IMG/VR virus record: IMGVR_UViG_2531839531_000008
Source of the DNA: a virus
Taxonomy: Duplodnaviria; Heunggongvirae; Uroviricota; Caudoviricetes
Strand: one strand, 5' to 3'
Length of the DNA stretch: 55,149 nucleotides
Of this stretch, positions 10,153-12,552 are shown piece after piece (the first letter of the stretch is position 1; every line of letters begins with the position of its first letter). Made by a program: the position numbers and the translations under genes. Below the pieces are notes generated by a model. It made no database searches, was not told the DNA's origin, and saw only the letters and a program-made list of their open reading frames with translations.

Positions 10153-10689
10153 GTGGAGATAATAATGGAAATAACTAAAGAACGATTATTGGAAATAGCA
10201 AATCTTAGTGAAAGGGCATTAAGTGATGGGAGGATTATTTCTCCTGATGCTTATGAATCAGTTACAAGTATAGAAATAATAACGATGGCCAGGATGCTTC
10301 TTGGTTGCCTCAAAAAAGAATATAAAAAAAAGGTGGATAGCAATGCTAATATATATGATATTTTGGACAGTTGGGGGGCTTGGGCTGCAGCTGGAAATAG
10401 TTCTATCAACTGGCGGCAAGTGGCTGATAAATATAAAGATGTAGTACCTCATGGTAAGAAATTACGCCGTCAGTGTGGCAACGATGAAGGTCGTATGATT
10501 GATACCTGCATGTTGAAGCTTAAACAATATAGAATAGATGACTATGAGTTAATTATCGCTCATTTTGTTATAGGTATATCTTTGCGTACAATAGCACGAA
10601 GGTACAAATGTTCAGATGGAACAATAAGAAAGAATATACAACTTACAATGGGAGTATTGTTAGGATTGTCTTTTTATGTGCAATTATAG
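10153..10689 (+). CDS. QuuD-type antiterminator Q family homolog, orphan copy in AT-rich island
   Basis: 178 aa; WGAWAA...QC..D...CM..LK...CSDG.I.K pattern matches QuuD-type Q as recalled; strongly AT-rich; no downstream late promoter. Confidence 0.55.
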   Translation: MEIIMEITKERLLEIANLSERALSDGRIISPDAYESVTSIEIITMARMLLGCLKKEYKKKVDSNANIYDILDSWGAWAAAGNSSINWRQVADKYKDVVPHGKKLRRQCGNDEGRMIDTCMLKLKQYRIDDYELIIAHFVIGISLRTIARRYKCSDGTIRKNIQLTMGVLLGLSFYVQL

Positions 10690-10694
10690 ATATA

Positions 10695-11174
10695 TCACAT
10701 GAGCCTTGTTATGTCTTTTAGACGCGACCAGGTAGTATAAAATTTTTTAAATGTAATAAGCAGGAAAAAAATTCCCACTTGGAGTAATAGTTGGGCATAT
10801 GTGTGCTCGTCGGCATCTTTTACTAGTGGGAATTTAAACTTTAGTGTATCAGGGAAAAATAATAAAATGATAAAAATAATACAAACTGATAGTAACCATC
10901 CCATAGTGGAGTGCATTTCTTCGGTCAGTTTTTTCAAATAACCAGTTTTTCCTATATTTCTAATTAGCGTATTATCTCTAGCTGAAGCAATCAAGGTAAG
11001 CGAACCTAAAACAAAGCCAAATAATATCCCAGAAAATGTAGAAACGGCCGAAGCGATTGGCTGAATTTGTGCAAAATTTAGCTTTGCAGAAAGAGGCCAT
11101 GCGATGATACAAAAAACAGCAGAGGCTAAATTATAACCATAACTGTACAAAGTTATCAATTTCCCCTTTTTCAT
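10695..11174 (-). CDS. small 4-TM membrane protein, candidate effector
   Basis: 159 aa, four hydrophobic helices; second gene of AT-rich minus-strand pair. Confidence 0.6.
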   Translation of the reverse strand: MKKGKLITLYSYGYNLASAVFCIIAWPLSAKLNFAQIQPIASAVSTFSGILFGFVLGSLTLIASARDNTLIRNIGKTGYLKKLTEEMHSTMGWLLSVCIIFIILLFFPDTLKFKFPLVKDADEHTYAQLLLQVGIFFLLITFKKFYTTWSRLKDITRLM

Positions 11175-11189
11175 ACCATCGCTCCAAAA

Positions 11190-12104
11190 TTAATCAACTC
11201 TTTGATTGGCTACTCCAAAGTATGCCTTCAATTCATCATCTTTACTATCTTTTGCAAGAGTTAAGGCGCTCCAAATGCTGCCAACTAATGGATACCTACC
11301 TCCAAGTTCAACATCTGTGTAGTAGACTAATTTGTCTGCTACAAGATCGATAGGATGCTGTACACCGGTCTCAATGTCTTGGGTTTCTAGTTTAAGTTTT
11401 TCAACCTCAAAAGTCTCTAGTGTTTCTTTAAAGGCTCTTTTTAGTTGAGAACCTAGATAGCGAGATTCAGGATCTTCAGAACGACTATCCCCACGTAATG
11501 TAAGATTTACTTTGGCAGAATTAGTACCATTTAGAGTGGCTATCAATGCATTGTTGAAGTTATGTTCAACATCCTCATATAGTTGCACATTCTTTGGCCG
11601 AGCGATACCGATTTCTAGAGTTTTGATTCGAACTTCATTACGCATCAACCACTTTAAACTACTGGTCTGAATGATGGGATTAACAGTTGTATTTTGTGAA
11701 CTGTTGGAAAGATATTTACTTAATAGCAACCAGCCATAACAGAGTCTGTTTCGTTGAATTATTAAAACTGAGTCTTGGGTATAAAAATGAAAATAAGCTT
11801 TTTCTAATAAGTTTTCATTGATTTCAAGTTTAATTTCTCTTTCTTCACCTCCGGCTACAGCAACATGAGGGAGATTATTGGTTCTGTGTTTTCCTATAAC
11901 TCCCCTGAAACCATAGTCGGTTCTTTCCATGAAGCGCATTTCAACTAGTTTATTTCCTATTTTACGTACAGTTTTGTCTCGGCCTTCGCTGTATGACTCA
12001 AAAATTTTTGAAAAAACAGCTTCAGGTGAATTAACTCCTGCATTTGTATCAGTGCTTATAGTGTGACATTGATAAAAATCGAAGAAAAAGCGCTTGCTAG
12101 CCAT
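11190..12104 (-). CDS. hypothetical 304-aa cytoplasmic protein, candidate sensor/enzyme of accessory cassette
   Basis: clean AT-rich ORF; no Walker, HNH, PD-(D/E)xK or nucleotidyltransferase motif seen by eye; 15-bp gap to membrane gene. Confidence 0.6.
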   Translation of the reverse strand: MASKRFFFDFYQCHTISTDTNAGVNSPEAVFSKIFESYSEGRDKTVRKIGNKLVEMRFMERTDYGFRGVIGKHRTNNLPHVAVAGGEEREIKLEINENLLEKAYFHFYTQDSVLIIQRNRLCYGWLLLSKYLSNSSQNTTVNPIIQTSSLKWLMRNEVRIKTLEIGIARPKNVQLYEDVEHNFNNALIATLNGTNSAKVNLTLRGDSRSEDPESRYLGSQLKRAFKETLETFEVEKLKLETQDIETGVQHPIDLVADKLVYYTDVELGGRYPLVGSIWSALTLAKDSKDDELKAYFGVANQRVD

Positions 12105-12552
12105 TGCAAAAATTTCCTGTAAAAAATAATTACATACTTAAGATACTACAAAGAATAATGCGTACGCAAAATTTTTTGTTGAGTAGAATATGTTCGCGGG
12201 GTATTTTTCGTTAAGATATAATTACCATGGTAACTTTTGCGTTGGTAATGCATTATGTGGTGGAGAAAAAGAGAGAGTCTTATCTTTAAATTATCGCCAG
12301 CCTATATGACTATATGAGTAGTATTTAGATGGGAAATTGTTGAGTTATTGAAAGGAACCATAACCTTTATGTAAAATTACTGCGGGTGCTTGAGGTTATC
12401 TGTCTCAGGCATGCCACCAAAAGGCAGATAGAGAAAAGCCCCAGTTAACGTTACGCGTCCTGCAAGACGTTTAACATTAATCTGAGGCTCAATCTATGAA
12501 CGGCAAATCTAGGTTAGCCTCTTACGTGCCGAAAGGCAAGGAGAAGCAGGCT

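Follow-up and report, generated by a model that had tools for sequence, protein, structure and literature searches.

The systems closest to the locus considered here are of the Rex type, in which a soluble protein is paired with a small membrane protein. For lambda RexAB, infection sensing and action are still unresolved (PMC11077077). In RexA itself, a dimerization domain is inserted into a split globular domain, flexible hinge and swivel loops join the two, and the protein is homologous to RdgC (PMC11077077). Sucellos (SclA/SclB), from the chromosomal integron of Vibrio cholerae, is described as resembling RexAB in structure while escaping the Pfam Rex domains; the system needs both of its genes, it acts through cell death or arrested growth, and its occurrences beyond integrons are mostly in prophages (bioRxiv 10.1101/2024.07.02.601686). 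RexABpp is encoded by prophage P1 of P. putida (PP_5643/PP_5644), and when RexApp is overexpressed, growth is inhibited in a manner that depends on RexBpp (PMC12894663). Two further Rex-like pairs, gp30/gp31 of mycobacteriophage Sbash and gp44/gp43 of Gordonia phage CarolAnn, are likewise validated (PMC6426596). Here we compare with these systems a pair of genes in a 55,149-nucleotide stretch of viral DNA (IMG/VR record IMGVR_UViG_2531839531_000008, hereafter the window), which derives from a Rac/Qin-like lambdoid prophage of Escherichia coli located beside potABCD. The pair consists of gene A, encoding a 304-amino-acid DUF6731 protein, and gene B, encoding a 159-amino-acid membrane protein.

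By fold and architecture the pair is RexAB-type, and we consider it fairly probable that it functions in abortive infection (phage exclusion) as a two-component module of the RexAB type, which the prophage carries as a moron. The comparison is carried by the predicted RexA fold of A, a RexB signal in the sequence of B, the order and spacing of the genes, their co-occurrence, purifying selection and mobility. The original prediction, which was made from the DNA letters alone, had proposed an uncharacterised defence module at this site. The conserved, mobile architecture of an abortive-infection system is borne out, and a role in defence would follow from it by analogy; the type, on the other hand, is not uncharacterised, in that the pair is a distant one of the RexA/RexB type.

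A RexA-like soluble protein and a RexB-like membrane protein

Gene A (11190-12104, minus strand) is the proposed sensor or activator. It carries the RefSeq label 'DUF6731 family protein', and its product matches Pfam DUF6731 (PF20505) over residues 1-268 of 304 with 47.6 bits, above the gathering threshold of 27; the same family is matched by 55 of the 58 A-family members, and the protein also matches phrog_7651 (E 8e-142). When its AlphaFold model (predicted local distance difference test score, pLDDT, 73.8) was compared by Foldseek with 350,542 PDB chains, the top match was lambda RexA (8TWQ_B), with an E value of 9.1e-7 and a probability of 1.00. The alignment runs from end to end in 329 aligned columns and has a low global TM-score, which is explained by the flexible hinge and swivel loops that join the domains of RexA. 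The next ranks were occupied by CENP-L, Iml3 and CENP-N, which we take to share an RdgC-like fold class. Among viral models in BFVD, the best match was a protein from the uncultured phage "ctylc9", and a 'recombination-associated protein' was also found (7e-4).

In the model, a beta-rich N-terminal domain is followed by a lower-confidence alpha/beta insert at about residues 147-243 and then by C-terminal strands and helices, a predicted order that is the same as that of RexA. On this structural prediction, A is best explained as a RexA-like cytoplasmic protein, with a split globular domain and an inserted alpha/beta domain. It is probably dimeric, and it is possibly a DNA clamp or DNA-binding protein. 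The original prediction had seen no recognisable catalytic motif in the protein, and we too found no sign of an enzyme, in keeping with RexA, which binds DNA and has no enzymatic role. No match to A was found in PADLOC or NCBIfam, and the PADLOC models gave only stray Cas12/Csm3 matches, in one or two of the 26 A-family members searched.

Gene B (10695-11174, minus strand) is the proposed effector. Four transmembrane helices had been predicted for its product, and the hydropathy profile contains four peaks (residues ~6-34, 40-65, 89-111 and 124-147). In the AlphaFold model (pLDDT 80), long helices span residues 2-30, 34-64, 79-105 and 126-158, and there is a short loop helix besides these four. 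The protein matches phrog_8552 (E 3e-68), and it has a weak match to the PADLOC RexB model (E 1.4e-3). It was this match, together with an arrangement in which a soluble protein of roughly 300 amino acids is followed, after a 15-bp gap, by a small four-helix membrane protein, that suggested a RexA/RexB-type pair. Of 26 assembled B-family sequences (34-88% identity), 23 match the PADLOC RexB model, always in the N-terminal half; the scores are individually weak, the best E value being 5.1e-6. One 159-amino-acid B homolog (P0046) bears the Joint Genome Institute (JGI) name 'DNA integrity scanning protein DisA with diadenylate cyclase activity', a name that has no support in our results and is probably a misannotation.

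Several results weigh against a Rex assignment, and most of them concern sequence. BLASTP of A against lambda RexA found nothing. With hhalign, narrow and broad DUF6731 profiles were compared with lambda RexA or with an alignment of four RexA sequences, and the resulting E values (0.58, 0.063 and 0.037) are not significant; hmmsearch of both profiles against PDB sequences did not find the 8TWQ RexA. Matches of the profiles to eIF2-alpha in the PDB (E 0.015) covered 77 residues and were judged spurious. Neither Pfam RexA (PF15969) nor PADLOC RexA matched the window A protein or any of its relatives (sets of 26 and 58) at E<=1; genuine RexA sequences reached 1e-97 and 1.4e-51 with the Pfam model and 7e-92 with that of PADLOC. 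For B, none of the 26 members matched Pfam RexB (PF15968) at E<=1, so that the gathering threshold is not reached, and transmembrane proteins are prone to nonspecific matches: Ni_hydr_CYTB was matched by 17 of the same 26 members, at best at ~1e-3. The window B protein has no Pfam family, and BLASTP against lambda RexB found nothing. Nor does DUF6731 appear anywhere in the literature searched, and no experiment backs a defence role for any DUF6731 protein. By these sequence definitions (Pfam, and the PADLOC model for A) the pair is not a member of the lambda RexA/RexB families.

Because nonspecific transmembrane matches occurred at ~1e-3 and Pfam RexB was not matched, a decoy control was run for B. 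A hidden Markov model (HMM) was built from four genuine RexB proteins (lambda, Klebsiella, Hafnia and Salmonella), and real B sequences were compared with block-shuffled and reversed decoys that keep the hydropathy profile. The median score was 11.0 bits for the real sequences and -0.4 for the decoys; the decoys had their 99th percentile at 6.7 and reached 12.1 at most, and 76% of the real sequences lay above that percentile. Conversely, with an HMM of the B family, the empirical P was 0.001 for Salmonella RexB and 0.003 for lambda RexB. By its helices and hydropathy peaks, by the PADLOC RexB matches and by the decoy comparison, B is thus a RexB-like four-helix protein.

The similarity between B and RexB is centred on the end of the second transmembrane helix and the cytoplasmic loop that follows it. 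Here the window protein reads ...SLTLIASARDNTLIRNIGKTGYL and lambda RexB ...ALTFLIGSRTRRLAKIREYGYM, with the motif KTGYL from residue 76 in the former and EYGYM from residue 77 in the latter. In Sbash gp31, a validated analogue of RexB, the central cytoplasmic loop is conserved and essential, and the substitutions R70A and D73A abolish defence (PMC6426596); the window B protein shares the RexB-type loop motif. Among viral structures, the one closest to the B model is a protein of phage "ctylc9", which also supplied the top viral match for A. At rank 4 in BFVD stands a 165-amino-acid protein of mycobacteriophage Sbash (probability 0.99, TM-score 0.55), which may be gp31.

Properties of B alone could also be read as those of a superinfection exclusion protein (Sie/Imm-like), which would block adsorption or DNA entry of another phage at the membrane without killing the cell, since B is a small, prophage-borne inner-membrane protein like many Sie systems. 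Such proteins usually act solo, however, whereas B is strictly linked to a cytoplasmic protein with a DNA-binding type of fold, and RexB is the sole defence model matched repeatedly by the B family, with no other PADLOC defence model recurring among its 26 members. We therefore regard superinfection exclusion as very unlikely. A relationship to Kiwa, which had already been doubted in the original prediction, was discarded: neither family has a KwaA or KwaB match in PADLOC at E<=1, and DUF4868 was not found in Pfam.

Linkage, settings and selection

The two genes are encoded on the same strand in the order A then B, separated by a spacer of 15 bp (11175-11189, minus strand) that measures 3-15 bp in homologous loci. 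Lambda rexA (36275-37114, 279 amino acids) and rexB (35825-36259, 144 amino acids) are likewise 15 bp apart. The two arrangements are thus alike in that genes for a soluble protein (~280-300 amino acids) and a four-helix membrane protein (~145-160 amino acids) follow each other on one strand with 15 bp between them, in being prophage-borne, in that RexA is the top PDB fold match of A, and in that the B family matches RexB HMMs and has its loop motif in the same position after the second transmembrane helix. They differ in that A has no significant sequence similarity to RexA, that B falls below Pfam RexB, and that the window pair is situated outside the immunity region, in the nin/hok cargo slot, where it is oriented against the flanking plus-strand phage genes.

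Co-occurrence of the genes in other genomes, which the original prediction had named as a test, was found throughout: A and B are adjacent, in the same order and on the same strand, in every locus examined, with a B homolog directly downstream of A in 10 of the 10 species compared. The homolog lists of A and B have contigs in common, on which the locus tags are adjacent. Hosts of adjacent pairs include Klebsiella, Rahnella, Photobacterium, Aeromonas, two Pseudoalteromonas, Vibrio, Endozoicomonas, Marinobacterium, a metagenome-assembled genome of Saprospiraceae, and Geomonas, so that the pair spans several phyla. An exhaustive profile search gave 787 clusters of DUF6731 relatives at 50% identity; tblastn of A against plasmids gave no match.

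Remote members of the A family (25-32% identity) also have a B partner directly downstream. In one marine contig, a partner of 150 amino acids lies 3 bp downstream of a remote A and matches PADLOC RexB at 9.3e-6, with residues 12-138 aligned to positions 6-133 of the 141 in the model. In a second marine contig (L015, 485-3300), a partner with the motif KTGHL had been missed by the gene caller. The open reading frame of this partner overlaps the 3' end of A, and A itself directly follows a Ser/Thr protein kinase gene.

The genetic settings of the pair are typical of defence cargo. It is found just before the holin gene in a Mu-like prophage, beside a prophage integrase, and on a plasmid-like contig. 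In Endozoicomonas elysicola (L003, 2776-9935), an AAA_15/AAA_21 ATPase gene and an HNH gene are located upstream, and DUF6988, Mrr_cat/NA-iREase1 and NERD genes downstream, a setting that looks like a defence island. In Pseudomonas phage AUS531phi (L026, 2958-5144), whose A is again one of the remote members, a cI-like repressor gene is followed by a DUF6731 gene (298 amino acids) and a gene for a 118-amino-acid membrane protein, which is the layout of the lambda cI-rexA-rexB immunity region. The AUS531phi partner matches PADLOC RexB (2.9e-5); it is shorter than the lambda-type B and has only three hydrophobic segments.

The AUS531phi arrangement raises the question of whether the pair mainly steers the lysis-lysogeny control of its own prophage rather than serving in defence. 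Lambda RexA can bind DNA and bias the bistable switch toward lytic growth independently of RexB (PMC11077077), the RexA/RdgC-type fold is a DNA-binding fold, and in AUS531phi the DUF6731 gene comes directly after cI. Against such a role, the pair is far from the immunity region in the window, Klebsiella, Marinobacterium and Vibrio; a defence island outside any phage and a plasmid-like contig, neither of which has a switch to regulate, carry it too; and a purely DNA-level function leaves the strict linkage to a membrane partner unexplained. On balance, a primary role in the prophage's own switch is quite unlikely. The absence of the pair from the immunity region in this prophage is at the same time a point against a Rex assignment: the genes for a LexA-family repressor and Cro are located to its left at a distance of ~3.3-4.7 kb, with the replication and nin-region genes in between. 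A location beside cI is not universal among Rex-type systems, as RexABpp and Sbash illustrate.

A and B are under purifying selection, with ratios of nonsynonymous to synonymous change per site (pN/pS) against the Klebsiella homologs of 0.15 for A and 0.18 for B, in a comparison in which synonymous sites are saturated. Taken with the linkage and the range of settings, the pair is a conserved, mobile two-gene unit.

The cargo slot and the Q-family gene

The pair is contained in a low-GC cargo block at 10155-12366, whose limits were drawn from phage matches and the GC profile, with a DUF4752 gene on its left and hok/sok on its right. Matches to other phages are confined to 10000-10154 and 12367-12500 of the window, with unrelated cargo in between, and these matches define the cargo as 10155-12366. 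The sharp fall in G+C beside hok that the original prediction had judged by eye is real, the GC fraction being 0.32-0.39 over ~10000-12400 versus 0.50-0.57 in both flanks. The whole cassette was found in 19 of 5426 complete E. coli genomes, and the flanks in 3866. Immediately to the right of the cargo, Rfam sok is matched at 12384-12558 (108.7 bits), and a weak isrK-like match follows at 12717-12798 (24 bits, compared with a gathering score of 50; E 0.025). The latter overlaps a terminator-like hairpin (12777-12794) and is probably a conserved region upstream of the DUF968 and nin genes.

In the Qin prophage of K-12, relBE occupies the same slot, upstream of hokD, as had been stated in the original prediction, and the slot upstream of hokD in Rac/Qin-like prophages is an exchange site for toxin or defence cargo. 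Such surroundings lead to another scenario, in which the pair would be a toxin-antitoxin-like addiction module that stabilises the prophage, with B as a membrane toxin restrained by A. The presence of relBE in the same slot of Qin, the adjacent hok/sok locus, and the small size and membrane location of B would all fit. In validated Rex-type systems, however, the soluble partner activates the membrane protein, as with RexApp and RexBpp (PMC12894663). A, moreover, at 304 amino acids and with its predicted RexA fold, is far larger than typical antitoxins, and the rex-like order of A then B is conserved. An addiction module is accordingly quite improbable, and a RexAB-type exclusion module remains the reading that we prefer.

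The AT-rich region 5' of A (12105-12366, minus strand) is the presumed promoter region of the pair. DNA homology with Klebsiella ends exactly at the start codon of A (12105), from which it follows that the region upstream of A is specific to the E. coli cassette. A consensus scan found no minus-strand promoter matching at least 9 of 12 positions in 12105-12366, which counts against the Rex-type reading; the scan as a whole gave 11 promoter-consensus sites versus 8.7 expected from shuffled sequence, that is, no excess, and none of them is upstream of A. The best promoter-like match, TTGATA-18-TATAAT (11/12), is at 11130-11159 on the minus strand, within the 5' end of B; because the total number of sites does not exceed the shuffled expectation, it may be a chance occurrence in AT-rich DNA.

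These observations can be considered along with the state of the prophage in strain NCCP 13717 (L006, where 12155-14366 corresponds to the window cassette). There, frameshifts are annotated in cro and rusA, and the gene for the terminase large subunit is directly followed by an IS66-family element, while the rex-like pair is still intact; the prophage looks defective. It could be argued, then, that the cassette is a decaying, functionless remnant, given the signs of defect in that prophage, a frameshift in its Q-family gene and the lack of a promoter in the scan. The cassette-bearing genomes listed nevertheless have both pair genes intact, with a DNA identity of at least 98.8%, the pN/pS values of 0.15-0.18 against Klebsiella were obtained at saturated synonymous sites, and the pair is conserved across phyla. 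That the cassette is a remnant is therefore highly improbable.

The third gene of the block is a plus-strand Q-family gene of 178 amino acids (10153-10689; PF06530, 4e-30; phrog_79 and phrog_3323). The stops of this gene and of the convergent B gene are 5 bp apart, which leaves no room for a late promoter immediately downstream, in agreement with the original prediction, which had also given the coordinates of the pair and the 15-bp gap correctly. The gene looks like a fusion: residues 4-67 resemble phrog_3323, a family of unknown function, and residues 64-178 resemble a 122-amino-acid Q protein of Klebsiella. At the DNA level, 10342-10689 is homologous to the Klebsiella Q gene, and 10153-10341 encodes an unrelated, phrog_3323-like N-terminal extension of 63 residues.

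In Klebsiella prophages, an 80%-identical pair converges on and abuts the 122-amino-acid PF06530 Q gene, and is situated between Q and the holin-lysozyme genes, a classic moron slot. Window positions 10342-12105 align with the DNA of a K. variicola prophage (L018) at 73% identity, precisely from the start codon of Q to the start codon of A, which indicates that Q, B and A were transferred as one block. In that prophage (5100-7770 of L018), and also in L019 and L020, the pair is antisense and a 900-bp intergenic region precedes the holin gene; with this layout, late transcription driven by Q would need to run through the pair in antisense. The B gene called in L019 encodes 142 amino acids, versus 159 in the window.

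The original prediction had counted the Q-family gene as part of the module, and in this respect it did not hold. The gene is absent from every other pair-bearing locus except the Klebsiella prophages. With 55% amino-acid identity and a pN/pS of 0.43 it evolves faster than the pair, and in NCCP 13717 a single inserted base (g) near 10372 divides the gene, which is annotated there as two open reading frames. The Klebsiella homolog has the position upstream of the lysis genes that is expected for Q, whereas the PF06530 gene of the window abuts a convergent gene, and the lysis genes are ~7 kb away behind a DUF1133-family gene. The latter (14569-15123) is located downstream of the DUF968 gene and rusA and upstream of the lysis region, which is the expected position of a late regulator, so that the Q-family gene of the cassette would be redundant in this prophage. 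The Q-family gene is thus a passenger, carried along with the pair from a phage late region, and is not a part of the module.

A bolder scenario can be drawn from the Klebsiella layout, in which Q, B and A would form a functional unit, with the pair silenced by Q-driven antisense transcription, and in which the DUF6731/B pairs would constitute the largest Rex-type clade. We regard this combined proposal as unlikely. If it were true, late transcription would silence the prophage's own suicide module at the time when the prophage itself turns lytic; the DUF6731/B clade, with 787 clusters, would far exceed the lambda RexA family, for which 19 cultured-phage records were found; and DUF6731/B would be a better model for how Rex systems sense infection.

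Proposed action and relation to other Rex-type systems

By analogy with lambda RexAB, Sbash gp30/gp31, Sucellos and RexABpp, the pair would be expressed in the lysogen, where A may sense infection by another phage and then activate B through an interaction of the two proteins. Activated B would permeabilise or depolarise the membrane, and the resulting damage would stop growth and abort the infection, making the lysogen resistant to the incoming phage.

How separate the DUF6731 pairs are from the divergent systems is judged mainly from descriptions of the latter, and one of these systems may itself be a DUF6731 pair. Sucellos, compared by description only, shares its host range in part with them, since Vibrio and related genera often carry DUF6731 pairs. 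It differs in that its homologs are reported mostly in Salmonella, which is not represented among the named DUF6731 matches, and no V. cholerae protein or locus was found among those matches, whether in the homolog lists, among 10 cluster representatives looked up, or in a scan of a genome collection with the narrow alignment (8 loci). RexABpp was compared by description and by the termini derived from its cloning primers. The 37.5 kDa of RexApp-His (PMC12894663) gives an estimated length of ~325 amino acids, longer than the DUF6731 proteins (~285-306 amino acids). The C-terminus of RexApp deduced from the primer is unlike DUF6731 C-termini, no k-mer is common to the primer-derived termini and the proteins compared, and two exact-match scans of IMG/VR with these termini gave nothing. 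The Sbash and CarolAnn systems are alike in combining a soluble protein with a partner having four transmembrane segments; on their side, expression is from the prophage and an ion-channel abortive mechanism has been proposed. Sbash gp30 differs in having 372 amino acids and in being of the DUF4747 type. UniRef labels one DUF6731 homolog 'DUF4747 domain-containing', and none of the 58 DUF6731 members matched Pfam DUF4747 at E<=1.

The pair is a very distant relative of RexA/RexB. Conceptually it adds little, since divergent systems of the RexAB type were validated earlier in Vibrio, Pseudomonas and actinophages: Sucellos, RexABpp and Sbash gp30/31, whose likeness to RexAB escapes BLAST, and CarolAnn gp44/43. 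The novelty lies in annotating DUF6731 and its partner as a large RexAB-type family, where the current annotation is only DUF6731 and a hypothetical membrane protein. A working annotation would follow for hundreds of "hypothetical" gene pairs, and with it many diverse sequences in which conserved residues and the essential loop of the B protein could be compared. The E. coli cassette provides an easily testable example, one that escapes detection by the 2023 PADLOC models, which give no match for A and a weak RexB match for B. We suggest that DUF6731, as a RexA-like family with an obligate RexB-like partner, would aid in approaching the question of how RexAB senses infection.

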